From positions 1,215-65,214 of the forward strand of contig JBCKKA010000002.1 of assembly GCA_038904515.1 (NCBI GenBank): a DNA stretch of 64,000 nt, in the 5' to 3' direction. The notes under the pieces were generated by a model. The model searched no databases. It was not told the origin of the DNA and saw nothing but the letters and a program-made list of their open reading frames with translations. This document shows, piece after piece, positions 7,536 through 64,000 of the stretch; within the stretch, counting starts at the first letter, position 1, and every line of letters starts with the position of its first letter. The position numbers and the translations under genes are program-made. This DNA comes from Acidimicrobiia bacterium (GTDB lineage: Bacteria; Actinomycetota; Acidimicrobiia; IMCC26256; PALSA-555).

Positions 7536-7643
7536 TCCCTAATAACTCCCGAATTAACGGTCTAATTGACCGGTTCGACTCTCAAGGTATTTATGTTCAC
7601 TGATCCCATGATTTCTACCGTGCTTACGGGTACGGTGGTGCTT

Positions 7644-8105
7644 ATGAATTGCCCGTACTGCCAAGCCGACGACGACAAGGTTGTCGATTCGCGTCCCAGC
7701 GAAGATGGCGGCGCGGTGCGACGGCGACGCGAGTGTTTGGCCTGCGGTCGGCGTTACACCACCCATGAACGGCCGGTCGAACTTCCGCTGATGGTGGTCA
7801 AGCGCTCAGGATTACGCGAGCCGTTCGAGCGCTCCAAGATCACCGACGGCATCGAAAAGGCGCTGGCCGGAGCCGAAATTGCCCCCGCCGCCCTCGAAGC
7901 GCTCATCGATGGCATTGAAGAAGACGCCCGCGCCTCGGCCCCCGAAGTGTCGAGCGAACAGCTGGGTCAGGGAGTGCTGGAGCGATTGCGGGAGATCGAT
8001 GAAGTCTCCTACCTTCGTTTCGCCTCGGTCTACAAAGGTTTCAATGAAGCCGAAGATTTTGAGCGCGAAGCGGTTGAGCTCGCTAAAACTACCGACCCCG
8101 AATAA
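7644..8105 (+). CDS. nrdR: transcriptional repressor NrdR
   Basis: MNCPYCQADDDKVVDSRP...CLACGRRYTT zinc ribbon plus an ATP-cone. ATG 7644 was chosen because orthologues begin at the zinc ribbon. The track ORF from 7566 is longer. Confidence 0.9.
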   Translation: MNCPYCQADDDKVVDSRPSEDGGAVRRRRECLACGRRYTTHERPVELPLMVVKRSGLREPFERSKITDGIEKALAGAEIAPAALEALIDGIEEDARASAPEVSSEQLGQGVLERLREIDEVSYLRFASVYKGFNEAEDFEREAVELAKTTDPE

Positions 8106-8117
8106 TCCCTTCTAACC

Positions 8118-8138
8118 CCAGCCCATTTATGGGGCTGG
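8118..8138 (+). terminator. possible nrdR terminator hairpin
   Basis: CCAGCCC (8118-8124) pairs with GGGCTGG (8132-8138) across a 7-nt loop, 13 nt after the nrdR stop. No U-tract. Confidence 0.35.
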
Positions 8139-8146
8139 TGGGGGAC

Positions 8147-8225
8147 TTGACAAGAAGGTAGTTCCAGTGTTGTAATTTACCCTCTATGTAGGGTGGTCCG
8201 TACATGATATCACCATATATGGTAG
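8147..8225 (+). promoter_or_regulatory. nrdJ promoter with two tandem NrdR boxes
   Basis: TTGACA at 8147-8152, an 18-nt spacer, TGTAAT at 8171-8176. Two 16-bp palindrome-like boxes: 8179-8194 (ACCCTCTATGTAGGGT) and 8210-8225 (TCACCATATATGGTAG). Their centres are 31 bp apart, the usual NrdR-box geometry. Confidence 0.7.
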
Positions 8226-8276
8226 AAATATCCGCTACTATTTCATTCACTTATTCATACCGAAGGGACTTCACCA

Positions 8277-11060
8277 ATGACCATCGCACCGGAGCAAATC
8301 GGAATCGGAATTCGTCGCTACTTCACTCAGGCCGGGGAGCACCCTTACGACGCGATTGAATGGGAACACCGCGACGCGCGTATTCAAAATTACAAAGACG
8401 GCACCGACGCGTTCTTTCAGCCCGACTGCGAATTCCCGTTGGACTGGTCGCAAAACGCCACCAACATCGTGGCGCAAAAATATTTCCGCGGTACGCCCAA
8501 CACTTCCGAGCGCGAAACTTCGTTGCGCCAAGTGATCGATCGCGTGGCCGACACCATTACCGCGTGGGGAACGCGTGACGGTTACTTCGTTGACGATCAA
8601 GAAGGGGCAACTTTTCGCAACGAACTCAAAGCCATTCTCGTTACTCAACGCGCCGCGTTCAACTCTCCGGTGTGGTTCAACATCGGCGTGGCCGGCGTGC
8701 CGCAACAAGCGAGCGCGTGTTTCATTCTTGCGGTCGAAGACACTATGGACGGAATTCTTAACTGGTACCGCGAAGAAGGAACTATTTTTAAGGGTGGTTC
8801 GGGTTCGGGAATTAATCTTTCGGGAATTCGTTCTTCGGTAGAAAATCTTGCCGGCGGCGGAACTGCTTCGGGACCGGTAAGTTTTATGCGCGGCGCCGAC
8901 TCGTCGGCCGGAACTATTAAGAGCGGCGGTAAAACTCGCCGGGCCGCCAAGATGGTTGTGCTCAACATCGATCACCCCGACATCGAAGAATTCATTTGGT
9001 GCAAGGCGCGCGAAGAGCGCAAAGCGCGCGCGTTGCGCGACGCCGGTTTTGATATGGACCTCGACGGCTCCGACTCGTTTTCGGTGCAGTACCAAAATGC
9101 CAACAACTCAGTGCGACTCACCGATGATTTCATGGCCGCAGTCGAAGCCGATCGCGACTGGGATCTGCGAGCGGTAAAAACCGGTGAGCCAGTAAAGACT
9201 CTGCGAGCGCGCGACCTCATGTTACAGATTGCCAAGTCGGCGTGGGAATGCGCCGACCCGGGTCTGCAGTTCGACACTACGGTTAACCGTTGGCACACTG
9301 CGCCCAACACCGCGCGCATCAATGCCTCGAACCCGTGTTCCGAATACATGCACATCGACAACTCGGCTTGCAACTTGGCCAGCATCAACTTGCTCAAGTA
9401 CCTCGACGGCGACGACAACTTCGATGTAACCGGTTTTGAACACACCATCGAAGTGATGTTCACCGCCCAAGAAATTTTGGTTGGTAACGCCGACTACCCA
9501 ACACCGATGATCGGCGAGAACAGCCGCAAGTTTCGCCAACTCGGTTTGGGTTACGCCAACTTGGGCGCGTTGCTCATGGCGCAAGGTGTCGCGTACGACT
9601 CAGTCGCCGGACGGGCATGGGCGGGCGCGATCACCGCGCTTATGACCGGTCACGCGTACGCCACCAGCGCGCGCACCGCGGGTCGCATGGGTCCGTTCGC
9701 CGGTTTTGCCGAAAACGCGGAGCCGATGGTTGAGGTATTGCGCATGCACCGCGCCGAAGTGGCCAAGATCGACGAAGAGTTGGTGCCGCTCGAGATTCTC
9801 GGTGCCGCGCAGCGTTCGTGGGACGAAGCGGTCGAACTCGGTGAGATTCACGGAGTGCGTAACTCCCAAGCCACCGTGCTCGCGCCGACCGGAACTATCG
9901 GTCTCATGATGGACTGCGACACCACCGGTATCGAGCCCGACCTCGCGCTCACTAAGGCCAAGAAATTGGTCGGCGGCGGCACGATGTTCATTGTCAACCA
10001 AACCATCCCGCGCTCGTTGCGCAAACTGGGATACTCGCCCGCCGAAGTGGAAGGAATTATTTCCTACATCGACGAGCAAAAGACCATTGTGGGGGCGCCG
10101 GCATTTAAAGAAGACCACCTGCCGATTTTCGCCTGTTCAATGGGCGACAATGTCATTCACTACATGGGTCACGTTAATATGATGGCGGCCGCGCAGCCGT
10201 TCTTGTCGGGCGCGATTTCTAAGACGGTCAATATGCCCGAAGAAGCCACCATCGAAGATGTCGAGAGTCTCTACTTTGAGTCTTGGAAGTTGGGTCTCAA
10301 AGCGGTGGCGATCTACCGCGACAACTGCAAGGTGGGTCAGCCCCTCTCCACGCAGAAAAAAGCGGGTGCATCCGACGATGACAGTACCGACCCGCTTACT
10401 TCGCAAGTAGAGCGGATTATCGAGACCGTCATCGTGCAAGAGCCCGTGCGGCAGAAGTTGCCCCGAATTCGCCAGTCGAAGACTTTTTCCTTCCGAGTGG
10501 CCGACTGTCACGGCTACGCCACGGTGGGTGAATTCGAAGACGGCCGACCCGGCGAAGTGTTTCTCAAAGTGGCTAAGCAAGGATCCACTCTCTCAGGGAT
10601 TATGGACGCCTTTGCCATTGCCATGAGCTTGGGTCTGCAGTACGGGGTTCCGTTGCGGGCTTTCATCGAGAAGTTCACCAGCATGCGCTTCGAGCCCGCC
10701 GGTATTACCGACGATCCCGAGATCCGTTTTGCTACCAGCTTGGTCGACTACATCTTCCGGCGTTTGGCGGTCGAATACATCTCGCCCGAAGATCGGGCCG
10801 ATATGGGCATATTTACCGTCAACGAACGGATGCAACCGACCCTTCCGGGAGTCGAAGAAGCCGCCACGCCTACTCGAACCAGCACCAACCCGTTGCCCCT
10901 TGAGGATCAGGCTCCGTCGGCCGCCCTGAACGCGCCAACGATTAAACCCAAGGCGCGTCAGTCGGAAATGGTGATCTGTTCAGTCTGTGGCGACATTATG
11001 CAGCGGGCCGGTTCGTGCCACGCCTGCCCGTCGTGCGGTGCTACTAGCGGCTGCTCCTGA
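8277..11060 (+). CDS. nrdJ: adenosylcobalamin-dependent (class II) ribonucleotide reductase
   Basis: 927 aa. Contains ATP-cone-less N-terminus, RNR barrel motifs including the active-site SNPCSEY, and a C-terminal Cys-rich tail CSVCGDIMQRAGSCHACPSCG. Lies directly downstream of nrdR and the NrdR boxes. Confidence 0.9.
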   Translation: MTIAPEQIGIGIRRYFTQAGEHPYDAIEWEHRDARIQNYKDGTDAFFQPDCEFPLDWSQNATNIVAQKYFRGTPNTSERETSLRQVIDRVADTITAWGTRDGYFVDDQEGATFRNELKAILVTQRAAFNSPVWFNIGVAGVPQQASACFILAVEDTMDGILNWYREEGTIFKGGSGSGINLSGIRSSVENLAGGGTASGPVSFMRGADSSAGTIKSGGKTRRAAKMVVLNIDHPDIEEFIWCKAREERKARALRDAGFDMDLDGSDSFSVQYQNANNSVRLTDDFMAAVEADRDWDLRAVKTGEPVKTLRARDLMLQIAKSAWECADPGLQFDTTVNRWHTAPNTARINASNPCSEYMHIDNSACNLASINLLKYLDGDDNFDVTGFEHTIEVMFTAQEILVGNADYPTPMIGENSRKFRQLGLGYANLGALLMAQGVAYDSVAGRAWAGAITALMTGHAYATSARTAGRMGPFAGFAENAEPMVEVLRMHRAEVAKIDEELVPLEILGAAQRSWDEAVELGEIHGVRNSQATVLAPTGTIGLMMDCDTTGIEPDLALTKAKKLVGGGTMFIVNQTIPRSLRKLGYSPAEVEGIISYIDEQKTIVGAPAFKEDHLPIFACSMGDNVIHYMGHVNMMAAAQPFLSGAISKTVNMPEEATIEDVESLYFESWKLGLKAVAIYRDNCKVGQPLSTQKKAGASDDDSTDPLTSQVERIIETVIVQEPVRQKLPRIRQSKTFSFRVADCHGYATVGEFEDGRPGEVFLKVAKQGSTLSGIMDAFAIAMSLGLQYGVPLRAFIEKFTSMRFEPAGITDDPEIRFATSLVDYIFRRLAVEYISPEDRADMGIFTVNERMQPTLPGVEEAATPTRTSTNPLPLEDQAPSAALNAPTIKPKARQSEMVICSVCGDIMQRAGSCHACPSCGATSGCS

Positions 11061-11086
11061 TGTCGAATTGCGTCCTCGCTCCTGGT

Positions 11087-11103
11087 GACGAGATCGTCTC
11101 GTC
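11087..11103 (+). terminator. weak hairpin after nrdJ
   Basis: GACGAGA tcg TCTCGTC, a 7-bp stem, 27 nt after the nrdJ stop. No U-tract. Confidence 0.3.
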
Positions 11104-11133
11104 GCCCGCCGCGTAGCAGTCGGTCGCCATCTC

Positions 11134-12177
11134 TTGGAAGCAGCAGCGCAGCAGCACCGGCAGCGGCTATGGCCGCGGTTCGCGATCCGCTCCGCGAACG
11201 TCGGCCATAACCTCGACGTCTTCTTGGTCGTCGCGATCTGCTCGGTGATTGGGAACCGCACGTTCCTGATGATCACCGGCTATCCGCAGCTCGGGAACGG
11301 GACGCTCCACATCTCGCACGCGATCTGGGGCGCCGCGATGATGGGGATTGCCATCGTGTGGTCGATCTCCTACCTCGGCCCGTCGACGCGCGCCTTCGTC
11401 GCGGTGCTGGGGGGCGCAGGCTTCGGATGGTTCGTCGACGAGCTGGGCAAGTTCGTCACGCGCGACGTCAACTACTTCTGGCAACCGACGATCGCGCTCA
11501 TCTACATGATCTTCATCGCCATGTACCTGACGTTCCGCTCGCTCGAGCGCCGGACGTTCGGTCCGAGCGAGGGGATGCTGAACGCCCTCGAAGCGCTGAA
11601 GTCGGCCGCCCTCGGCCAGCTGAGCGAGCCCAGCCGGCAGGATGCGTTGGACCTGTTCGACCGCACCGAACCGACGAGCCCGCTCGCCGCGAAGGTGCGA
11701 GCGCTCCTCGACGACGCCGACGTGCTCCCGCCGGTCGAGCTGGGCCGCTTCCACCGATCCGGTGAATTGCTGCGTGCCCACTACGTCGGATGGACCGCGC
11801 GCCCGTGGTTCACCGTCGTGCTCGACTCGATCTTCGCCCTCTACGCCGCCGTCGCGTTAACGACCGTGCTGGCCCTCGCGATCGACAGGTCGGGGATCAC
11901 CTCGTTCCCCGAGCGGGTCACCGTCATCGCGTCGTCGGTGTCGGGCATCCTGATCCTGATCGGCGTGACCCAGCTCCGCCGTTCACGCATCCGTGCGTAC
12001 CAGTGGTTCGGGCGCGGGTTGCTCGTCAACATCTTCGTCACCCAGATCTTCGTGTTCGCCGAGGAGCAGCTCGGCGCGATCTTCGGTCTCGCCGTCACGC
12101 TCTCGGTGTGGGTGATGCTGCAATCCGCGGCCCGCGTCGAGGAAGCCCGCTCGCGTGAAGCAGCACGCGCCGCGTAG
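11134..12177 (+). CDS. multi-pass integral membrane protein, family not recognised (GC-rich insert)
   Basis: 347-codon ORF with very strong G/C third-position bias (38 of 40 codons hand-counted). Several hydrophobic helices flank a charged central segment. The start (TTG 11134) is uncertain. Confidence 0.6.
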   Translation: MEAAAQQHRQRLWPRFAIRSANVGHNLDVFLVVAICSVIGNRTFLMITGYPQLGNGTLHISHAIWGAAMMGIAIVWSISYLGPSTRAFVAVLGGAGFGWFVDELGKFVTRDVNYFWQPTIALIYMIFIAMYLTFRSLERRTFGPSEGMLNALEALKSAALGQLSEPSRQDALDLFDRTEPTSPLAAKVRALLDDADVLPPVELGRFHRSGELLRAHYVGWTARPWFTVVLDSIFALYAAVALTTVLALAIDRSGITSFPERVTVIASSVSGILILIGVTQLRRSRIRAYQWFGRGLLVNIFVTQIFVFAEEQLGAIFGLAVTLSVWVMLQSAARVEEARSREAARAA

Positions 12178-12294
12178 ACGCGTCAGAGGGCTGCTACCCC
12201 GTCCACCCGGCGTTCGAGAGCCCGCGATAAAGACGTCCTGATCCTCGCGGCCGAGTCCGCGGGGCCCGCGCTCACCATCTCTTAGAATCCGCGC

Positions 12295-12816
12295 GTGCCC
12301 TTACGCTTATCCGAAACCCAGTACACGGTCGTGCGGGCGGCGCTTGATCGCACGGTTCCTGGCGACGACCTGACTCCGGGCGCCGGTGTGGCCGGTGGTG
12401 CCGATTATGTCGACGGATTGCTGGCCGCGTTCAATTTCGACCCTCCGCGCGTTTGGGCGGGGGGACCAACTTCGGGTCGCCACGGCGCCGCCGCCACTTT
12501 CGATCAATGGCTCGAACTCGGCCCGTGGGAAGAACGAGCGTGGCGAGCGCGCATCGAAGAGTGGTGGATAATTTACGAAACCGGTCTCGCCACGCTGGGC
12601 GAAGATTTCTTAGAACTCAGTGAGGCCGAGCAATCCGCGCGCCTTTCCACTACCAGTAAAGAATTTCGGGAGCTGCTATTTACTCACGCGTGCGAAAGTT
12701 TGTACGGCGATCCGGTTTACGGCGGCAATCGCGACGGGCAGGCGTGGCAAGCAATTGATTTTCGCGGCGATGTGCAACCTCGGGGGTACACCGACGAAGA
12801 GGTGCGCGCACCGTGA
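12295..12816 (+). CDS. gluconate 2-dehydrogenase subunit-3-like small subunit of a GMC oxidoreductase
   Basis: 173 aa. C-terminal YGDPVYGGNRDGQAWQAIDF motif typical of this small-subunit family. GTGA overlap with the downstream GMC flavoprotein gene. Confidence 0.6.
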   Translation: MPLRLSETQYTVVRAALDRTVPGDDLTPGAGVAGGADYVDGLLAAFNFDPPRVWAGGPTSGRHGAAATFDQWLELGPWEERAWRARIEEWWIIYETGLATLGEDFLELSEAEQSARLSTTSKEFRELLFTHACESLYGDPVYGGNRDGQAWQAIDFRGDVQPRGYTDEEVRAP

Positions 12817-51751: not shown

Positions 51752-52422
51752 TGACCGCCAACCCCGACGATTCGCAGTGGTCGTTCCCCGCACCCACTCG
51801 GGGAGAAGATTTAGTCGGCGTGGGCGCCGACTTGGCGCCGGCTACTTTGCTTAACGCGTATCGGCACGGACTGTTTCCTATGCGGGTTGCCAAAAACGGC
51901 CCATTGGGCTGGTGGTCACCCGACCCGCGTGCGGTGTTACCGCTTACCGATTTTCACCGAGGTCGTTCTTTACGCCGAGCCGAGCGGCGGTTTGGGCTAA
52001 GTGTCGACAAAGCGTTTGAAGAAGTGATGCGTAGATGTGCCGACCCTCGTCGCCCTCACGGCTGGATCGACGAAGAATTCATTACTGCTTATGTACGGTT
52101 ACACGAGATGGGGTTTGCTCACAGCGTCGAGGTGTGGTCTACCGCAGAGGCGCAACCTCACCAACTAGTGGGTGGTATTTATGGAGTCGCGATTGGGGGT
52201 CTTTTTGCGGGCGAATCGATGTTTTCTCTCGCTAGTGGTGCCTCGAAAGTTGCTTTGGCAGCACTCGTAGACCGTTTACGCACTGGTGGAGGAAAACTCT
52301 TTGATGTCCAGTGGCTAACTCCGCACCTAGCATCTTTAGGAGTCATCGAGATAAGCAGATCAGAATATTCGACCGCACTAAAAGCCGCGGTAAAACGCCC
52401 ACAGCTTCGACTAGCTGACTAG
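51751..52422 (+). CDS. aat: leucyl/phenylalanyl-tRNA--protein transferase
   Basis: LLNAYRHGLFPM, WWSPDPR and GESMFS motifs. The ATG overlaps the MFS stop (TGATG). Confidence 0.85.
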   Translation: MTANPDDSQWSFPAPTRGEDLVGVGADLAPATLLNAYRHGLFPMRVAKNGPLGWWSPDPRAVLPLTDFHRGRSLRRAERRFGLSVDKAFEEVMRRCADPRRPHGWIDEEFITAYVRLHEMGFAHSVEVWSTAEAQPHQLVGGIYGVAIGGLFAGESMFSLASGASKVALAALVDRLRTGGGKLFDVQWLTPHLASLGVIEISRSEYSTALKAAVKRPQLRLAD

Positions 52423-53538
52423 TTCCTCTTGGTTGACCGCATCAAACAGCGCGTATTCAACTTCGGTGTCGGGCGCATCTTCATAATCAATTACACCAAT
52501 TTCGGTGAAACGATCGCGCAGCCAACCGTCGCCGGCATCGAGTAGACCGAGTTTTTTACAATTGGGAACAATCTTCGAAAATAAGGCAGCCTGAAATGGG
52601 TTAGTACCAGTTGATTGAAAAGCCATAAACATTTCAGTAACTGTTTTTCGGCTGATTCCGCATTTCTCCCAAACGGTATGCATCATCAACCGGTCGCGCA
52701 TGCGCAGAGCCGACTCAAAAGCAAACTCTTGGCGTTCTTTTATCTCGTTGTTGTCAAGACCCTGATAAAACTCTTGTAGAGATAGCACGCCAAAAGCGAC
52801 ATGGCGGGCTTCATCGCTCATGACGTAGCGCAGCAGTGACTTCAATAACGGTTCAGTCGTAATTGCGTGCATCATTCCAAATGCGGCCAGCGCTAGTCCT
52901 TCGATCATGATCTGCATACCCATATAGGTCATGTCCCAGCGGCTATCGAGCAAGATATCGTCAATTAGTAGTTGCAAGTTGGCGTTGACGGGATAGTGAC
53001 CATCAAGTTTGGTATCAAGATAGCGAGCAAACACCTCGACATGACGAGCTTCGTCGACCACCTGAGTAGCGGCGTAATACTTTGCGTCGATCCACGGAGT
53101 GGTATTAACGATTTTGGCAGTACAGAGCAGTGCGCCTTGCTCGCCGTGAAGAAATTGGCTCATGCGCCAATTGAAAGCTTCGGTAGCAAAGACTTCCCAT
53201 TCTTTATCACTCCATAATTTGAGTGGTGAATTAGGCATCGCGGTAAAACTGTCTCGCATACCTTGGAATGCCACTTGCATTTCGCGGGCAACTTTTTCTA
53301 TATCTACTTCAATCGACCAGTCGAGGTCGGTCGATACATTCCACTGCGAAGTCTTAGCGCGTTCGTAGAGCTTTGATAGTCCTGGTCGGGTGCGCTCGTA
53401 GTCCCAAGTGAAAACGGTGTCGCCGCCTATGGGAGTGGAGTATTCGTCAGTGCCAAAATCTATAGCGTCATCAGCCAAAATCGAGGCAATGCTGTTGACA
53501 TCAGCTCGACCAAGTGCTTCGAATTTATCCATTTTCAA
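52411..53538 (-). CDS. ferritin-like di-iron carboxylate protein (AurF / R2-like oxidase superfamily)
   Basis: Two E...DEARH sets (FLHGEQGA...VDEARHVEVF and IEGLA...SDEARHVAFG). 375 aa. GC is noticeably low, about 42-53% in two 60-nt hand counts. Confidence 0.6.
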   Translation of the reverse strand: MKMDKFEALGRADVNSIASILADDAIDFGTDEYSTPIGGDTVFTWDYERTRPGLSKLYERAKTSQWNVSTDLDWSIEVDIEKVAREMQVAFQGMRDSFTAMPNSPLKLWSDKEWEVFATEAFNWRMSQFLHGEQGALLCTAKIVNTTPWIDAKYYAATQVVDEARHVEVFARYLDTKLDGHYPVNANLQLLIDDILLDSRWDMTYMGMQIMIEGLALAAFGMMHAITTEPLLKSLLRYVMSDEARHVAFGVLSLQEFYQGLDNNEIKERQEFAFESALRMRDRLMMHTVWEKCGISRKTVTEMFMAFQSTGTNPFQAALFSKIVPNCKKLGLLDAGDGWLRDRFTEIGVIDYEDAPDTEVEYALFDAVNQEELVS

Positions 53539-55102: not shown

Positions 55103-57232
55103 TTATTCGATCTTGATTTTGGGTAGGAGGCGGTCAAGAGTCTTAGGAAACCACCAGTTGCTTTTACCGAGGATCTCCATTACCGCCGGCACCAAAACCA
55201 TGCGCACCAGAGTTGAGTCGAGAGCTACCGCCACCGCCAAGCCCAAGCCAAACATTTTGATTAATGGTGTGGGGTTAAATACGAACGCCAAAAATACCGT
55301 AATCATGATTAGCGCGGCTGAGGTAATCACGCGCGCAGTTTTGGAAACGCCCGCCACTATCGCTGCACGGGTGTCATTTTTCTGATCGTATTCTTCGCGT
55401 ATTCGGGTAAGTAAAAATACTTGGTAGTCCATAGACAGCCCGAACAGCACCGCGAACATCATCATCGGTACAAAAGAAACAATCGGGATAGTGGTTTGTA
55501 ATCCAATGAGATTTATTCCCCATCCCCATTGGAATACGGCCACAGTTATTCCGTAAGCCGCGCCTACTGACAGAAGGTTCATAACCGCCGCGGTAGCGGG
55601 TATGACGATTGATCTGAAGACCATCATCAGCAGTAGGAAACTCAAGAACACTACGGCGAGAATAAAGAACGGTAGGCGGCTCGCTACTCGGTCCCCGATA
55701 TCGATGAAAGTTGCGGTAGCTCCACCGACGTACGCCTTAGCATCGCTGCCTTTAAGCGCGTTGGGGACTACTGAGGACCGTAAATTACGAACCAAGTTGG
55801 TAGTGGCCGCCGAATCGGGTTGAGCAGCCGGTATAACGGTGACAATAGCGGTGTTGTCGGCGGGATTAATACTCCCGCTCTGGGCCGACGGTGGGAACAC
55901 GCCCGCTATGCCGGGCGTATTTTTCAGATCTTGAAGTAGGTTCGGCGGAATCGCGCCGCCGTTGGGGTAAGTGACAACGATCAACAACGGGCCGTTAAAT
56001 CCGTTACCAAAACCTTTAGCGATGGTGTCGAAGGCGATGCGATTAGTAGTACCGGGAGGCTGAGTGCCATCGTCGGGTTGGCCGTAACGAATAGATAAAA
56101 ATGGTACCGCCAAGGTTAGAAGAATAAGTAAAACCGCCACTCCGTAGGGCCACGGATGCCGGGCTACGTGGATGGCCCAATTCTCCCAAAATGTCGGCTT
56201 ACCGTCGGTCACCTTTTCTTGGCGATGGAAAATTTTGGGAACCTTGCCGCGGTCAATACGATCCCCGAGTGCACCCAGCAAAGCGGGAATCAGAGTAAGG
56301 GCCGCGATCATCATAATGAAAACCACAAATGCAGTAGTGAAGCCGAGCATCGAAACGTAAGGAATTCCCGCGATGACGAGCCCAGTGATGGCGATTACGA
56401 CGGTAAGACCGGCAAAGAGCACTGCTTGTCCTGCGGTGCTTACCGCGCGACCGATTGAATCTTCAATCGTCATCCCCGCGGCGCGACATTCGCGATGACG
56501 AGTGACGATAAATAGTGAGTAATCGATTCCAACGCCAAGACCAATCATCATGGCCAACATCGGCGCAACCGACCCCACATCGATAAACGCCGAGAGCACG
56601 GAAATGCTAGTTATTCCAAAAGCAAGACCGAATATCGCAGTAATAATCGGTAGGCCGGCGGCTACGACCGCGCCAAAGGCGAATATCAAAATGACAATCG
56701 AAAGCAGGAGCCCGATTAGATCGGCCGGCGAGTTGGGCGGACTGACGGCGTAGTCAGTGAGTTGACCACCAAAATTCACATTAAGACCGGCGGCTTTGGC
56801 GGGTGCGGTGGCTTTTACTAGTTGGGCATAACCCGATTTTCCTACTTGCGAGATAGATCCGGAATACTGAACGTTAAGAAGTTCAATACTGGGATCGAGC
56901 GGCGAGGGTGTCGGCACGACGCTTGTCACGCGGGGAAGCTTCTCAATGTTGGCTACGGTTTCTTCGATAGCGGTGGCGGCAGTAGGGGAGCTGACCGAGC
57001 CATTAGGCGCAACAACTACCACTGAAGCGCCCACTCCAGACTGGGCGGGAAACCGCTTTACCAGCAGGTCTATTGCCGTTTGCGATTCGGTTCCCGGAAT
57101 CGTGAAAGCATCAAGATAAGCACCACCAACTGAAGTTTTAATAACTGCTAGGAGGATTACGGCCAGAATCCATACCGCGATCACCGCACGGTGATGTCGA
57201 GCGGCTCCGCGCCCAACGCGTTCCAGAAGCAT
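55103..57232 (-). CDS. MMPL-family (RND superfamily) membrane transporter
   Basis: 709 aa from ATG 57232 (MLLERVGRGAARHHRAVIAVW...). Two 6-TM bundles with periplasmic loops. Contains GVGIDYSLFIVTRHRE and GLSMDYQVFLLTRIREE motifs. The track ORF to 57577 is a spurious extension. Confidence 0.85.
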   Translation of the reverse strand: MLLERVGRGAARHHRAVIAVWILAVILLAVIKTSVGGAYLDAFTIPGTESQTAIDLLVKRFPAQSGVGASVVVVAPNGSVSSPTAATAIEETVANIEKLPRVTSVVPTPSPLDPSIELLNVQYSGSISQVGKSGYAQLVKATAPAKAAGLNVNFGGQLTDYAVSPPNSPADLIGLLLSIVILIFAFGAVVAAGLPIITAIFGLAFGITSISVLSAFIDVGSVAPMLAMMIGLGVGIDYSLFIVTRHRECRAAGMTIEDSIGRAVSTAGQAVLFAGLTVVIAITGLVIAGIPYVSMLGFTTAFVVFIMMIAALTLIPALLGALGDRIDRGKVPKIFHRQEKVTDGKPTFWENWAIHVARHPWPYGVAVLLILLTLAVPFLSIRYGQPDDGTQPPGTTNRIAFDTIAKGFGNGFNGPLLIVVTYPNGGAIPPNLLQDLKNTPGIAGVFPPSAQSGSINPADNTAIVTVIPAAQPDSAATTNLVRNLRSSVVPNALKGSDAKAYVGGATATFIDIGDRVASRLPFFILAVVFLSFLLLMMVFRSIVIPATAAVMNLLSVGAAYGITVAVFQWGWGINLIGLQTTIPIVSFVPMMMFAVLFGLSMDYQVFLLTRIREEYDQKNDTRAAIVAGVSKTARVITSAALIMITVFLAFVFNPTPLIKMFGLGLAVAVALDSTLVRMVLVPAVMEILGKSNWWFPKTLDRLLPKIKIE

Positions 57233-57263
57233 TCGCTTTAAACTACTCCAATATCGGCGGCGA

Positions 57264-58028
57264 TTGTGCAACCATGAGGATGTGGAAAGCCCGCCGTGGT
57301 CTCTAGTCGATTGCCCGCCCGACGCTCGACGAGTGGTGCGAAACCGAAAAGTTCGGCTCGGCGATGTCGGGTCATCGGGATATTTACGCCTCGATGCGCT
57401 CGCGCGGTATTTACAAGATGTGGCTGCTGATGATGTCGACGAAGCGGGTATTGAGGGAGCTTGGGTATTGCGGCGTACGGCGGTTGTGGTCAAAGCGAGC
57501 CCAAAATTTTCTGACGAAGTCGAAATGGCGACCTTTTGTTCGGGAACGGGGTCGCGTGTGGCCGAACGACGAACCACCCTTAGTGTGGCGGGTATTCCAT
57601 TTATCGAGGCGGTTGGGCTTTGGGTGTTTATTGACCGTGACGGTCGCCCCGCAGAACTAGAGAATCGGTTCTTTGATGTTTACGGAGTCAGTGCGCAAGA
57701 ACGCAAAGTGCGAGGACGACTGCGATTACCCCGCCCCTCGTCTGAGCTGGTGGCCCGCCCTTGGATAACGCGGGCCAGCGATTTCGATGTGCTGGGTCAT
57801 ATGAATAACGCGCTGGCCTGGGTGATGATCAAAGATGCCCAACACCGCATGGTCCCGAAGGCCCAGATCGCCAGTGCTTTGCTTGAATATCGTGTACCAA
57901 TAGATCCCACTACCGAAATCGGAGTGGTTAGTGAACTAAACGATGACCATCTCGCGGTATGGATTACCGGTGGCTCAGAGACTTTCGTTGCTGCTCGGCT
58001 CGACCTCAATTCGCCGGCGCAGGGCTAG
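57264..58028 (+). CDS. acyl-ACP thioesterase family (double hot-dog) protein
   Basis: YLRLDALARYLQDVAADD...AWVLRRTAVVV...WVFIDRDGRP pattern. The start (TTG 57264 or GTG 57282) is uncertain. Confidence 0.6.
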   Translation: MCNHEDVESPPWSLVDCPPDARRVVRNRKVRLGDVGSSGYLRLDALARYLQDVAADDVDEAGIEGAWVLRRTAVVVKASPKFSDEVEMATFCSGTGSRVAERRTTLSVAGIPFIEAVGLWVFIDRDGRPAELENRFFDVYGVSAQERKVRGRLRLPRPSSELVARPWITRASDFDVLGHMNNALAWVMIKDAQHRMVPKAQIASALLEYRVPIDPTTEIGVVSELNDDHLAVWITGGSETFVAARLDLNSPAQG

Positions 58029-58055: not shown

Positions 58056-58868
58056 ATGACTAACGACAGCCCTACTCCTAAAAATGCGCTCAGTTCCAAC
58101 CAGTCGCCTGATAATTCTTTAAGCGCGGTGGGATCATTGAGCATCGTGGTGCCGATGTGGAATGAAGAAGAAAGTTTTCATCCGTGCACTTCCGCGATGC
58201 TCGCCGAACTCACTGTCCTTGCAAATAGTGGGCTTATAACTCAGGGTCAGTTAGTAATAGTTGACGACGCTTCTACCGATTCCACTCCGAGTCTTTGCGA
58301 CGCGTTAGCGACAAGCGATAGTCGTGTGCATGTAGTTCATCATCCCGAGAACACCGGTCTGGGCGGGGCAGTGCGATCGGGAATACTGGCCGCCGATGGC
58401 GATCGAGTTCTTTACACTGATGCCGACCTGCCCTTCGATCTAAATGAGATCGGTCGCTTAGTAAGGCTGGCCGCGGCCTACGAGGCGGGAATAGTTTCGG
58501 CGTATCGCTTTGAGCGCAAGGCTGAAGGATTTAGACGCATGATCTATTCGTCTATCTACAACGGGTTAGTTCGCGTCATGTTAGGAATAAGAGTGCGCGA
58601 TGTTAACTTCGCCTGTAAGTTGATTAGCAGAAATGTTTTGCGCGATATCACAATTAAAAGTGAAGGGTCGTTTATCGACGCGGAGATTTTAGCCCGAGCC
58701 GAACGCAGTGGATACGGAATTATTCAAGTCGGACTCGATTTTTTTCCTCGCACAGTCGGGCTTTCCACTCTTTCTTCTCTGCGCACAATTAGAAAAATTT
58801 TACGAGAGATGTTCGGTCAATTTCGAGAAATTCGTCGCATTAAGCCAGTGACTACTAATAAAAAATGA
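58056..58868 (+). CDS. GT2 glycosyltransferase of the polyprenyl-phosphate sugar synthase type (DPM1/ArnC/PpgS-like)
   Basis: SIVVPMWNEE, VIVDDASTDST, the YTDADLP (DxD) motif, and FACKLISR. No C-terminal TM bundle. Confidence 0.75.
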   Translation: MTNDSPTPKNALSSNQSPDNSLSAVGSLSIVVPMWNEEESFHPCTSAMLAELTVLANSGLITQGQLVIVDDASTDSTPSLCDALATSDSRVHVVHHPENTGLGGAVRSGILAADGDRVLYTDADLPFDLNEIGRLVRLAAAYEAGIVSAYRFERKAEGFRRMIYSSIYNGLVRVMLGIRVRDVNFACKLISRNVLRDITIKSEGSFIDAEILARAERSGYGIIQVGLDFFPRTVGLSTLSSLRTIRKILREMFGQFREIRRIKPVTTNKK

Positions 58869-59719
58869 TAACGGCCAAGCGATTGCTAGTCGTCAATGCC
58901 GACGACTTTGGCTTAACCGAAGGTACCAACCGGGCAATTATTCGCACTATCAACTCCGGTGTAGTTACGAGTACATCGGTCTTGCCTAACGGCGCCGCCT
59001 TTTTGACGGGCGTGCGCGAGTTGCGAAATATTGCGGTGGGAATTGGTGTGCACTTGACTATGGTCGGTAGCGGTGCTCCGATTTTGAGTGCAACCGAGAT
59101 CCCGTCGTTAGTTGACAAGCACGGCAAGTTTGCCAAGGCGTGGCCGACCGTGACCCGCCGAGCGGCGTTACGGCTCATTAATCCCGACGACTTGCGTCGA
59201 GAGTTCGCGGCTCAGATTGCGTTATTGCGCGACTCGGGTCTAGCTCTGACTCATCTTGATACTCATCAAAATGTTCATCTTTGGCCCACGATCGGAAAAG
59301 TGGTTACCGATCTGGCCGTGGCTGAAAACATCGATTTCGTCCGGATTCCCCGAACTCGAAGAATTACCCCACTTTCACTCGGAGTTGACTATCTGTCGAA
59401 GCGGTTAGCGCGCCGCCTGGTGCGAGCAGGAAGAACACTTACCGATATTTCGGCTGGTTTCGATGAAGCAGGTGCTCTCGAAATCGACTGTCTTAAAAAA
59501 GTCATCGGTCGGTTGGGCAATTCGTCGGCTCAACAAGCAGACATCGTTTGTCACCCCGGTGAGGCCGACGATCCCGATCTCGGCGCTTACTCGTGGGGAT
59601 TTCGTTGGGCCGAAGAGACTGCCGCGCTAACCACACCGACTATCAGGCAGCAAATTGTCAACGCGGGGTTCACTCTGGGCACCTACCGTGATCTGGTGGG
59701 GACGGTAAGCAGATCGTGA
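58865..59719 (+). CDS. YdjC/ChbG/HpnK-family carbohydrate deacetylase
   Basis: LLVVNADDFGLTEGTNRAII...SVLPNG...GVHLT...LTHLDTHQNVH. 4-nt overlap with the GT2 gene. Confidence 0.8.
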   Translation: MITAKRLLVVNADDFGLTEGTNRAIIRTINSGVVTSTSVLPNGAAFLTGVRELRNIAVGIGVHLTMVGSGAPILSATEIPSLVDKHGKFAKAWPTVTRRAALRLINPDDLRREFAAQIALLRDSGLALTHLDTHQNVHLWPTIGKVVTDLAVAENIDFVRIPRTRRITPLSLGVDYLSKRLARRLVRAGRTLTDISAGFDEAGALEIDCLKKVIGRLGNSSAQQADIVCHPGEADDPDLGAYSWGFRWAEETAALTTPTIRQQIVNAGFTLGTYRDLVGTVSRS

Positions 59720-60930
59720 CGACTTCAGTAGCCGAGCGTCCGGAACGCGTCGATCGCGTTGTCGTCGGTCGTGCCGCGCTGGCTTACTTGGCAATCGCTC
59801 TGGTATTAACCGCGCTAACGGTATTGGCTAATTCATATTCGGGTGGCGATGCCGGTTTAAAAAGCATTATCGACCGTTTAGGGCTGGCGGGAGGCTGGTG
59901 CCGTTTCGATTGCGGATGGTATGTCGGTATTGCCGAGCAAGGTTATTTTTATAACCTCGGCTATCAATCGAGTGTGGCGTTTTTCCCTGGTTATCCCATG
60001 GCGGCTCGTGGGCTCGGAAATATTATTGGCGATATTCCGCTAGCGGTAATCATCACGAGTTGGCTATCGGGATTTGGTGCTGCTATCGCTTACGCGGCTT
60101 GGTGCACGGGGCGACTTGACCGACGGGTAGCAACATGGTCGGTAGCGGTTTTATTGCTCTATCCCTACGGGTTTTATTTGTTCGGTGCGGGTTACGGCGA
60201 CGGTTTATTTCTCGCATTAGCGGTTAGCGCATTTTTATTACTCGAGCGGGATCACTTATTCCTCGCGGCGACTGCGGGCGCTTTAGCCGGCGCCACTCGT
60301 TCTATCGGAATTGTAATTTTCGTAAGCATGGTTTTAGTGATAATCGACCGACGGGGTGGTATGCCCATGCGTGCGCCCGATTCGGGTTGGTTGGCCAAAC
60401 TTGGCCTGCCCGCGTCGGTGTCGTTGAAAGTCTTACGCGGGCGTGATGCGATTTTGTTTATTGCTTTGCTCGGTCCTATTGGCTGGTCATTATTTCTAAA
60501 TAATAGATTTGGTGACGGGTTTGCTTATGTAACCGTGCAAGAAGCATGGAAGCAAAAAGAGGGTCCCCGGACTTGGCTGAAGTTTGATTTATTCCGCGAG
60601 ATTGCCAATGGGCAGGATATTTATTACGTAGGCGGCCGGCTTATTCCGGCTGTGCTGCTAGTCGTGCTGTTGGCCCTACTGCCGCTGGTAGCCAAAAAAT
60701 TAGGACCCAGTTACGCGGCGTACAGCGCCGCGGCGGTTCTGTTGCCTGCATTGGGTAGTAAAGATTTTCATAGCATGGGTCGTTACGCTATCGCCGCGTT
60801 TCCGATATTCGCCGTCGTCGGCATCGAGCTGTCAGCCCGCCCCCGCTGGGGCCGATTGGTTTTAGTGCTGGGCGCGATATTCTTATGTGCCGGAGCCTTC
60901 GGATTTGCGCGAGGTTGGTACTTGGCGTGA
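59716..60930 (+). CDS. polytopic membrane protein, GT-C / PIG-V-like mannosyltransferase-type
   Basis: 404 aa, at least 9 TM helices. First-loop motif RFDCGWYVGIAEQGY...VAFFPGYPM, as in PIG-V-like GT-C proteins. 4-nt overlap with the deacetylase gene. Confidence 0.55.
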   Translation: MTTSVAERPERVDRVVVGRAALAYLAIALVLTALTVLANSYSGGDAGLKSIIDRLGLAGGWCRFDCGWYVGIAEQGYFYNLGYQSSVAFFPGYPMAARGLGNIIGDIPLAVIITSWLSGFGAAIAYAAWCTGRLDRRVATWSVAVLLLYPYGFYLFGAGYGDGLFLALAVSAFLLLERDHLFLAATAGALAGATRSIGIVIFVSMVLVIIDRRGGMPMRAPDSGWLAKLGLPASVSLKVLRGRDAILFIALLGPIGWSLFLNNRFGDGFAYVTVQEAWKQKEGPRTWLKFDLFREIANGQDIYYVGGRLIPAVLLVVLLALLPLVAKKLGPSYAAYSAAAVLLPALGSKDFHSMGRYAIAAFPIFAVVGIELSARPRWGRLVLVLGAIFLCAGAFGFARGWYLA

Positions 60931-62582: not shown

Positions 62583-64000
62583 ATGCAGCCGTCTCGGCTT
62601 GTGGTGCTTGCCGCTGGGGTTGGTTCGCGCCTCGAGTCCAAGGTGGGTGCGAAACCTTTGGTGCGGGTCGGGGGTATAACACTCCTGGAACGGTCAATCG
62701 TCGCGGCGCACGAGGCCGGCTTCGACGACGTCGTCGTCGTCACGGGCCACGAACACGAACGTGTCGCCCGGGAGGCCTTCGACGTGAGCCGTCGCCGAGG
62801 GCTGCGCGTTGCCGTCGTCCATAACGCGCGCTATCGGGAGGGCAACGGACTCTCCGTCCTCGTCGCGAAGGACGTCGTCGGCGACGCACCGTTCGCGCTG
62901 GTGATGGCCGATCACGTCTTCACGTCGGCACTGCTGCGCCGACTCCGGGCGACGTCGGTGCGACCGGGCGAGGTCGTCGTCGCCGTGGACCGCTCGCTCG
63001 GACGGGCCGCCGGTGTCGACCCGGCCGACGCGATGAAGGTTCTACTCACCGGCGACCGCGTCGACGCCATCGGCAAGATGCTGCCCACCTACGACGCGTT
63101 CGACGTGGGCGCCTTCGTCTGTAGCACGGCGGTGTTCGACGCGGTCGAAGAAGCCGCGGCATGCGGCGACACCGCGTTCGCGGGTGCCGTGCAAGTGCTC
63201 GCCAGCCTCGGCACGGCACGCGCGCTGCCTCTCAAGGACGACGAATGGTGGTTTGATGTCGACACTCCGACCGACTGTCGCCGCGGCAGCCGGTTTCTGT
63301 TCCGAAGTACCGGTAAGGCGCTCGACGGCGCCGTGGCGACGCGCTTGAACCGAGCGGTTTCGCAGCGTTTCGTGACCCCGGTGCTGCTCGGCGTCTTCCC
63401 CTCGATCACCCCGAACCAGGTCACGATTGTCGCGTTCGCCGTAGCGTTCGCCGCCGCGGCGGCCCTGGCCGCCCACGCCCCGCTGGTAGCCGCGGTCCTC
63501 ATCATGGCGGCAAGCGTGCTCGACGGCAGCGACGGCGAGATCGCCCGCCTCGCGCACCGCTCGTCGCGCTTCGGCGCGTTCTTCGACGCGGTCCTCGACC
63601 GGGCTGCGGACGGTCTACTCTTTATCGGCGCGGCCATCTACCTCGCGACCTCGGGTGACCTCGCCGGCCCTCTTGGGTCGGCCCAGGTGCCGGTCGTGAT
63701 AGCCGTCGCCGGCCTGGCACTTGTCGGGCACCTGCTCGTCAGCTACACCACGGCCAAGGCCGCCGTCGACCTGGGCCACAGGTACCACGGCACCATCCTC
63801 GCGGGTGGCCGCGGGCGCGACCTGCGACTGCTGATCCTGACGCTCGGCGCCTTGGGCGCGGCAGTGGATGCCAACTCGCTGCTGGCCGCGCTCGCCGTCG
63901 TGGCTGTCCTGTGCGCGGGGATCGTGAGCGTGCGGCTGCGGGCGTCCTGGTGGGCGGACGGACCCGGCGCGCACTACATGGGGGTGCGTGCCGTGGCGTT
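62583..64000 (+). CDS. bifunctional nucleotidyltransferase / CDP-alcohol phosphatidyltransferase (IPCT/DIPPS-like), 3' end outside window; NOT in the supplied ORF track
   Basis: My own translation from ATG 62583 (SD AAGAAGGAG at 62564-62572) has no stop up to 64000. LVVLAAGVGSRL...GNGLSV...WWFDVDTPTD, then TM helices and DGSDGEIARLAHRSSRFGAFFDAVLDRAAD (the D-G-x2-A-R-x8-G-x3-D-x3-D motif). G/C at third positions is 34 of 40 hand-counted codons. Confidence 0.8.
   Translation, partial: MQPSRLVVLAAGVGSRLESKVGAKPLVRVGGITLLERSIVAAHEAGFDDVVVVTGHEHERVAREAFDVSRRRGLRVAVVHNARYREGNGLSVLVAKDVVGDAPFALVMADHVFTSALLRRLRATSVRPGEVVVAVDRSLGRAAGVDPADAMKVLLTGDRVDAIGKMLPTYDAFDVGAFVCSTAVFDAVEEAAACGDTAFAGAVQVLASLGTARALPLKDDEWWFDVDTPTDCRRGSRFLFRSTGKALDGAVATRLNRAVSQRFVTPVLLGVFPSITPNQVTIVAFAVAFAAAAALAAHAPLVAAVLIMAASVLDGSDGEIARLAHRSSRFGAFFDAVLDRAADGLLFIGAAIYLATSGDLAGPLGSAQVPVVIAVAGLALVGHLLVSYTTAKAAVDLGHRYHGTILAGGRGRDLRLLILTLGALGAAVDANSLLAALAVVAVLCAGIVSVRLRASWWADGPGAHYMGVRAVA

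Follow-up and report, generated by a model that had tools for sequence, protein, structure and literature searches.

What might two glycosyltransferases and a sugar deacetylase produce together when their genes overlap by a few nucleotides, as they do in a bacterium of the class Acidimicrobiia? The three genes lie at positions 58056-60930 on the forward strand of a 64,000-nucleotide stretch of contig JBCKKA010000002.1 (hereafter the window, by which the whole stretch is meant), whose nearest named relatives are metagenome-assembled genomes (MAGs) of Acidimicrobiia. The first gene (58056-58868) encodes a glycosyltransferase of family 2 (GT2) of 270 amino acids, the second (58865-59719) a de-N-acetylase of the YdjC/ChbG/HpnK family (referred to as YdjC in the following) of 284 amino acids, and the third (59716-60930) a membrane protein of the GT-C type of 404 amino acids. 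An earlier note on this DNA had placed the three genes at these positions and reported overlaps of 4 nt at 58865 and 59716, and the junction sequences confirm both: in aaaaATGAtaa, the ATG start at 58865 overlaps with the TGA stop at 58866-58868, and in atcGTGAcga, the GTG start at 59716 overlaps with the TGA stop at 59717-59719. The same three genes are called in a MAG contig of 97.8% nucleotide identity (GCA_038904525.1, JBCKKB010000007.1; locus L086). Our answer, which we hold with moderate confidence and which draws on sequence, structure models and analogy, is that this cassette probably serves the synthesis of a polyprenyl-phosphate-linked N-acetylhexosamine (HexNAc), its de-N-acetylation in the cytoplasm, and the transfer of the sugar by the GT-C protein to an acceptor that is probably lipid-anchored.

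Concerning the first gene, the earlier assignment to the DPM1/ArnC/PpgS type of GT2 enzymes is upheld. The protein matches Pfam family PF00535 (E 1.5e-26), and its best NCBIfam matches are PgfS, ArnC and a haloarchaeal transferase of dolichyl-phosphate (Dol-P) hexose, with PpgS and AglJ following lower down; all of these remain below the equivalog cut-offs (60.8 bits against 500 for PgfS, 55.2 against 529 for ArnC, 27.9 against 370 for PpgS). An AlphaFold (AF2) model based on 41 orthologues (pLDDT 87.7) has only ArnC, GtrB or Pyrococcus DPMS among its top 20 Foldseek matches in the PDB (E 1.7e-14 to 5e-11), to which it aligns over about 235 residues with a TM-score of about 0.7 and a root-mean-square deviation of about 3 Å. 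Residues D71, D122 and D124, the latter two forming the DAD motif, are invariant in the 41 orthologues. No transmembrane (TM) helix or hydrophobic segment was found in the protein, unlike in ArnC and GtrB, and its C-terminal end forms an amphipathic helix; PpgS and the DPM1-type enzymes, which lack TM helices, likewise end in such a helix. The orthologous group extends with 50-60% identity across Actinomycetota, including Cellulomonas. The GT2 protein belongs to the polyprenyl-phosphate glycosyltransferase class and is the orthologue of no characterised member of it; from fold and family, it is predicted to be a polyprenyl-phosphate HexNAc synthase. A soluble product of the kind made by GpgS in methylglucose lipopolysaccharide (MGLP) synthesis was considered and rejected: GpgS appears no higher than rank 31 in Foldseek and scores 29.8 bits in NCBIfam, and such a product would leave the GT-C protein unexplained.

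The YdjC protein matches Pfam family PF04794 with an E value of 8.5e-53 (180.3 bits against a cut-off of 29.7) over residues 8-264 of its 284. In NCBIfam, HpnK is the top match (157.4 bits, 4.3e-46, cut-off 232.6), followed by ChbG (135.1 bits, 3e-39, cut-off 227), and its alignment to the solved structure of a chitooligosaccharide deacetylase (7vi8, 1e-20) covers the whole protein. The motifs NADDFG, GxH and HxDxHxxxH are common to both, such that the metal and catalytic residues D13, D14, H63, H130, D132 and H134 are retained, as the assignment to an active deacetylase presupposes; of 43 cassette copies, all carry H130, D132 and H134, and the conservation of D13, D14 and H63 is at least 90%. 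Since neither a signal peptide nor a TM helix was found in the protein, it is predicted to act in the cytoplasm.

The third protein had been taken for a PIG-V-like GT-C enzyme, and that it is a GT-C enzyme is borne out by its fold. The window protein itself has no Pfam match at E<=0.01, and a profile made from its alignment finds no match among PDB sequences even at E<=10, so that only fold comparison works. PF04188 (PIG-V) is matched by 30 of 44 aligned relatives (best E 7e-9), besides a few weak matches to GT87, ALG10 and PMT_2; this pattern points to a distant bacterial branch and not to a clear member of PIG-V. The AlphaFold (AF2) model (pLDDT 92.4, pTM 0.92) finds in the PDB, at E<0.1, exclusively GT-C enzymes or the GT-C-like PIG-U; the enzymes include STT3, AglB, ArnT, PglB, ALG9/12/3, Pmt4, PIG-M (9wno), Emb and AftD, with PimE and AftA situated just above the threshold (E 0.12-0.17). 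The similarity to ArnT (5f15) is at the level of the fold only, with a TM-score of 0.51 and 12% identity, and the protein is PIG-V/GT76-like, not ArnT-like. Four residues, D65, Y69, R195 and R356, are invariant in the family. D65 is situated in the loop after the first TM helix, with a short outer helix on either side, and is part of the motif RFDCGWYVGIAEQGY (RFDxxWYxxIAxxGY). The catalytic aspartate of GT-C enzymes usually lies in the first outer loop, at a position matching D65, and Asp65 is the predicted catalytic residue. The model is nearly all membrane-embedded, with short extramembrane loops and no large soluble domain. Among solved GT-C structures, such short loops appear to accompany lipid-linked acceptors (ALG and PIG enzymes, PimE), larger soluble domains being typical of enzymes that modify proteins or polymers; this makes a membrane-anchored acceptor most likely, e.g., a glycolipid, lipoglycan or lipid-linked precursor.

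The GT-C family is large, with 22,112 representatives at 50% identity found at E<=1e-3 and 6,454 at E<=1e-30. Longer relatives (P0299 of 1096 amino acids, P0295, P0315 and P0206) were inspected for informative fusions, but no Pfam domain is found in their extensions. Between the window and L086 (GT-C gene at 7541-8755), the GT-C protein differs by 28 amino acid changes, none of them at invariant columns, with a ratio of nonsynonymous to synonymous substitution rates (dN/dS) of about 0.52; over the same comparison there are four changes in GT2 (0.25), two in YdjC (0.12) and one in a short-chain dehydrogenase/reductase (0.07). The raised value of the GT-C gene suggests that constraint is relaxed or that the surface-facing enzyme is under diversifying selection.

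Whether the three genes belong together was assessed in 85 loci, comprising the best 80 of 452 GT-C relatives from a scan with one genome per species and five further loci from an exact look-up; neighbouring genes were detected by tblastn with the window proteins. A GT2 gene is found within a few kb of the GT-C gene in 47 loci and a YdjC gene in 53, and both occur together with a methyltransferase gene, described below, in 43. Three arrangements exist: GT2-YdjC-GTC in the clade of the window, GTC-GT2-YdjC in most Acidimicrobiia, in Modestobacter and in Cellulomonas, and a convergent one in Myxococcota (Myxococcus xanthus, Cystobacter, Archangium and Corallococcus-related strains), in which GTC faces YdjC-GT2. 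The locus of Myxococcus xanthus (L084) is found at about 849.2-852.7 kb of NZ_CP143624.1. The flanks of the cassette are unrelated between lineages, and in a neighbour-joining tree of the GT-C proteins, in which Chloroflexota form the outgroup, cassette-linked copies appear throughout, with a few sub-clades lacking the cassette. The triad is thus co-conserved in two phyla, three gene orders and unrelated surroundings. The idea that it is an actinobacterial operon holds insofar as Actinomycetota carry it, yet not exclusively, since Myxococcota do so as well. A search of the literature, covering open-access papers and bioRxiv only, found no description of this cassette.

Two groups deviate from the full set. 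The Chloroflexota loci (L082, 5731-8039; L083; L085, 5827-7882) contain a PIG-V-like GT-C gene and a PpgS/AglJ/ArnC-like GT2 gene only, with neither a deacetylase nor a methyltransferase in these three loci; in L085, a GT4 gene follows them. These loci may constitute a simpler, ancestral two-gene version, and the occurrence of GT2 and GT-C alone suggests that the carrier-charging pair is the older core, to which deacetylase and methyltransferase were added. The second group, a monophyletic clade of six Acidimicrobiales loci (L023, L027, L034, L042, L050 and L064), possesses GT-C, YdjC and the methyltransferase; here the cassette is followed by an open reading frame (ORF) of the size of a UvrD/PcrA-like helicase (around 1,000 amino acids). 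Long ORFs in L027, L050 and L064, which seem to fuse GT-C and YdjC, arose artefactually when ORFs were extended in GC-rich DNA; the two genes lie in different tblastn frames, with a 4-nt overlap like that in the window.

Clustering of the ORFs in the neighbourhoods revealed a fourth gene, which directly follows the last gene of the cassette in 51 of the 85 loci and encodes a class I S-adenosylmethionine (SAM) methyltransferase of around 225 amino acids (e.g., at 9227-9892 in L003, 7124-7882 in L006, 8727-9410 in L021 and around 7041-7634 in L075). The protein is soluble, exhibits conserved GCGHG and DxD motifs, and has generic class I enzymes as its nearest solved structures, e.g., Rv0560c and phosphoethanolamine N-methyltransferase. 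In the window, tblastn with four orthologues yielded nothing better than E=0.35 over the whole 64 kb; likewise, the gene was not found locally in L001 and L002, whereas it is present in L006, which is 53% identical. The product of the window's lineage would therefore be unmethylated, unless the gene is situated elsewhere in the genome. In most other lineages, the presence of the methyltransferase implies that the final sugar may be something other than a simple free amine.

Taken in sequence, the proposed pathway would begin with the peripheral GT2 protein, which, judging from its fold and family, would move HexNAc from UDP-HexNAc to polyprenyl phosphate on the cytoplasmic face of the membrane. 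N-acetylglucosamine (GlcNAc) is favoured over N-acetylgalactosamine (GalNAc) only because no 4-epimerase gene is linked. The soluble YdjC enzyme would then strip the N-acetyl group, leaving polyprenyl-phosphate-linked hexosamine (HexN); this step is proposed on the basis of the family, the conserved catalytic residues and two precedents, NaxD, which acts on undecaprenyl-phosphate (Und-P) GalNAc, and HpnK, which acts on a GlcNAc-hopanoid. In most relatives, although not in the window, a cytoplasmic methyltransferase would alter the intermediate, possibly on the freed amine. A flippase encoded outside the cassette would carry the lipid-linked sugar to the outer leaflet, where the PIG-V-like GT-C protein, as its fold and linkage suggest, would pass the sugar to the acceptor by means of Asp65 in the first outer loop. 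The linkage of the GT-C gene to GT2 and deacetylase genes argues for a hexosamine donor. As to the free-amine pathway that the earlier note had predicted, its general course is supported, the pathway as such being inferred; its outcome has to be qualified in that most lineages add a methyltransferase and that the GT-C protein belongs to a family other than that of ArnT, FlmK and LgmB.

Several observations weigh against a hexosamine donor pathway of this kind. In the six-locus Acidimicrobiales clade, no GT2 gene exists within 6 kb of the cassette. A flippase of the GtrA, SMR (small multidrug resistance) or MATE type would be expected to appear as a small polytopic or MATE gene, and none is found in or beside the cassette in the window, in L001-L008 or in L025; the 127-amino-acid ORF that follows the cassette in L003 was rejected as a candidate, as it is soluble and confined to L003, L004 and L007. 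The only activity of PIG-V (GT76) that has, to our knowledge, been characterised is the transfer of mannose from Dol-P-mannose, not of a hexosamine. The known transferases of hexosamines or 4-amino-4-deoxyarabinose (Ara4N), i.e., ArnT, FlmK and LgmB, form a different GT-C family, and PMT_2 (PF13231) is matched only weakly and in 2 of the 44 aligned relatives (best 0.0011). The family matches of the methyltransferase are generic, and the NodS match in Pfam, present in one copy, only just exceeds the threshold (27.9 bits, cut-off 24). Finally, as the scores for the equivalog models of ArnC, PpgS, HpnK and ChbG are all well below the cut-offs, homology does not reveal the substrate specificity.

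The family membership of the GT-C protein, different from that of ArnT, FlmK and LgmB, leaves open that a glucosamine (GlcN) lipid is its acceptor and not its donor, and this leads to the alternative that fares best, which we nevertheless regard as unlikely. It assumes an assembly similar to that of glycosylphosphatidylinositol (GPI): GT2 and YdjC would make a GlcN-lipid, which after flipping would serve as the acceptor of the PIG-V-like GT-C protein; the latter would add mannose or another sugar from a housekeeping polyprenyl-phosphate sugar, mirroring the order of PIG-A/PIG-L and then PIG-M/PIG-V in eukaryotes. PIG-V is indeed the nearest named family of the GT-C protein; its structural neighbours PIG-M, ALG3/9/12 and PimE all act on lipid-linked acceptors, and the very small extramembrane loops are a feature shared with them. 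Moreover, the substrate of HpnK, the top NCBIfam match of the YdjC protein, is a GlcNAc-lipid whose deacetylated form is a final product and not a donor, and among bacteria, phosphatidylinositol (PI) occurs chiefly in Actinomycetota and Myxococcota. On the other hand, the GT2 protein is structurally nearest to enzymes with polyprenyl phosphate as acceptor, and it is an inverting enzyme, whereas PIG-A is a retaining GT4; deacetylases of the PIG-L type are LmbE and not YdjC proteins. No PI-related gene is co-conserved with the cassette; the gene at 62583, which resembles an inositol-phosphate cytidylyltransferase, is a GC-rich insertion specific to its lineage. Furthermore, in all characterised bacterial carrier-charging pairs of GT2 and GT-C, the product of GT2 is the donor of GT-C (PMC11127046).

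Extended by the fourth gene, the same scheme would yield a bacterial cationic glycolipid resembling the GPI core, in which the GlcN-lipid made by GT2 and YdjC is methylated in most lineages and then elongated by the PIG-V homologue on the outer leaflet. We give this version a small chance; if true, the bacterial enzymes would be functional cousins of the eukaryotic PIG-L and subsequent PIG-M/PIG-V steps. In a milder variant, which stays with the transfer of a hexosamine, the transferred sugar may be N-methylated, possibly permanently cationic, and would constitute a new decoration for these envelopes.

Direct glycosylation of a membrane lipid appears improbable. Here, GT2 would place GlcNAc on a hopanoid, a carotenoid, a diacylglycerol or a ceramide, YdjC would deacetylate it in the manner of HpnI/HpnK, and GT-C and the methyltransferase would then tailor or export the glycosylated lipid. 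The HpnK match of the YdjC protein (4.3e-46, 157 bits) fits with this, as do an MmpL lipid exporter and an acyl-ACP thioesterase beside the cassette in the sub-lineage of the window. That match remains below the HpnK cut-off of 232.6, however, the GT2 protein has no match to HpnI and only a weak one to HpnB, and its fold best matches polyprenyl-phosphate glycosyltransferases; the linkage to MmpL and thioesterase is limited to the sub-clade of the window. Neither a squalene-hopene cyclase nor HpnI nor the radical-SAM protein HpnJ is found among the neighbours in the loci examined, for which reason the specific HpnIJK reading was rejected. Chance adjacency of two unrelated housekeeping glycosyltransferases with a ChbG-like enzyme of chitobiose or chitooligosaccharide catabolism, for which the full-length alignment of YdjC to 7vi8 and its match to the ChbG model might be adduced, is highly improbable given the 4-nt overlaps and the linkage kept in about 50 loci of two phyla despite reordering and unrelated flanks, and chitobiose catabolism was rejected on synteny, no chb-type phosphotransferase system transporter or glycosidase genes being found nearby in the window and related loci.

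As regards the surroundings of the cassette, a gene for an acyl-ACP thioesterase-like protein (57264-58028, forward strand; Pfam PF01643, 1.4e-13) stops 27 nt upstream of the GT2 gene and may be co-transcribed with the triad. It is situated 5' of the triad in L001, L002, L006 and L086, and is not found there in L003, L007 and the other lineages; it is outside the conserved cassette, its linkage being limited to the sub-lineage of the window. A scan for promoters and terminators was uninformative, with fewer sites than in shuffled controls. It is only in this sub-lineage (L001, L006 and L086) that the triad has genes for MmpL, acyl-ACP thioesterase and acyl-CoA dehydrogenase at its flanks. The MmpL ORF (55103-57577, reverse strand, 824 amino acids) has an over-extended 5' end, by which it overlaps the divergent thioesterase gene; in relatives, MmpL is called at 709-710 amino acids. 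A protein of 375 amino acids (52411-53538, reverse strand), which adjoins the acyl-CoA dehydrogenase also in L001 and L086, exhibits a weak partial match (2.7e-08, 33 bits) to R2-like ligand-binding oxidase, a di-metal carboxylate protein. Downstream of the cassette, an ORF at 62583-64000 (forward strand) runs out of the window; it comprises the 472 N-terminal amino acids of a fusion of 767, of which L086 contains the full copy (10408-12711) and which consists of a nucleotidyltransferase, a CDP-alcohol phosphatidyltransferase and, at the C-terminus, a phosphatase of the haloacid dehalogenase type. Its best match is the bifunctional inositol-1-phosphate cytidylyltransferase/di-myo-inositol-phosphate-phosphate synthase of Thermococcales (1.4e-63, 215 bits, cut-off 580). 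With a GC content of 70.5% in a genome of 56% and its absence from this position in the 67%-identical L001, the fusion gene appears to have been acquired horizontally in recent times and to serve the synthesis of a compatible solute or an inositol lipid.

If the cassette does provide a hexosamine donor and transfer it, freshwater and soil Acidimicrobiia, Cellulomonas, Modestobacter and Myxococcus xanthus would bear a de-N-acetylated hexosamine on a membrane-anchored component of the envelope, and in most lineages this decoration would be methylated. In the known Gram-negative and mycobacterial cases, cationic sugar decorations govern resistance to antimicrobial peptides as well as recognition by phages and the immune system. 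A first function would also be assigned to a large bacterial branch of PIG-V-like GT-C proteins. As Myxococcus xanthus, a genetic model, is among the carriers, the prediction is testable there.

Among the known systems, the Francisella set FlmF2/NaxD/FlmK and the Bordetella set LgmA/LgmC/LgmB are alike in enzyme logic, and two of their three protein families match those of the cassette: a GT2 enzyme loads HexNAc onto polyprenyl phosphate, a YdjC enzyme deacetylates the lipid-bound sugar, and a GT-C enzyme hands on the amino sugar outside the cytoplasmic membrane (PMC11279074, PMC4993483). In Francisella, the YdjC enzyme NaxD deacetylates Und-P-GalNAc prior to its transfer to lipid A (PMC11279074), and LgmA, LgmB and LgmC are needed for GlcN on the lipid A of Bordetella (PMC4993483). 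A linked flippase is as undefined in these systems as it is for the cassette. Despite this similarity, there are clear differences: the GT-C protein of the cassette is PIG-V/GT76-like, whereas theirs are ArnT-like, and most cassette copies add a SAM methyltransferase. Since the hosts of the cassette include monoderm Actinomycetota, which have no lipid A, the acceptor must differ as well.

In its hosts, which are Actinomycetota, and in combining a GT2 enzyme free of TM helices with a GT-C protein, the pathway that adds galactosamine (GalN) to mycobacterial and corynebacterial arabinogalactan (PpgS/Rv3631, Rv3632 and the GT-C Rv3779/Cgp_0658) also resembles the cassette. There, GT2 makes polyprenyl-phosphate GalNAc and GT-C transfers GalN outside the cell, and deacetylase and flippase are stated as still unidentified (PMC9671496). 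The GT2 protein of the cassette is no PpgS equivalog (27.9 bits, cut-off 370), a small membrane partner similar to Rv3632 is lacking, and the deacetylase is physically linked; the cassette YdjC thus constitutes a linked candidate for the type of step, deacetylation of a lipid-linked HexNAc, that is missing from that pathway (PMC9671496).

The Arn system (ArnC/ArnD/ArnT) shares with the cassette a course in which a GT2 enzyme charges the carrier, the lipid-linked sugar loses an N-acyl group, and a GT-C enzyme transfers a cationic sugar; ArnC is the closest solved structure to the GT2 protein. ArnC-type enzymes possess C-terminal TM helices, however, which the cassette protein lacks; ArnD, a NodB/CE4-type deformylase, is no YdjC protein, the sugar is Ara4N, ArnT belongs to GT83, and the operon includes a dedicated flippase of its own, ArnE/F. 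Eukaryotic PIG-V/Gpi18 (GT76, PF04188) resembles the GT-C protein in size, in its all-membrane architecture and in carrying a conserved Asp within an outer-loop motif near the N-terminus, but uses Dol-P-mannose as donor and mannosyl-GlcN-PI as acceptor and has no link to a GT2 or YdjC gene. In the Gtr systems of O-antigen modification (GtrA/GtrB/Gtr*), GtrB is the second-best structural match of the GT2 protein and is paired with a GT-C protein, as in the cassette; a GT-C enzyme together with a lipid-linked donor is the hallmark of such three-component systems (PMC11127046). Differing from them, the cassette has no GtrA-like flippase, inserts a deacetylase and usually a methyltransferase between charging and transfer, and is chromosomal and widely conserved, whereas Gtr is a phage-borne serotype converter. 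The enzyme logic of the cassette is thus already known; it differs from the Francisella and Bordetella systems in the PIG-V-like GT-C protein, the GT2 protein without TM helices, the methyltransferase that usually accompanies them, the lack of a linked flippase, and the hosts, which include monoderm Actinomycetota as well as Myxococcota.

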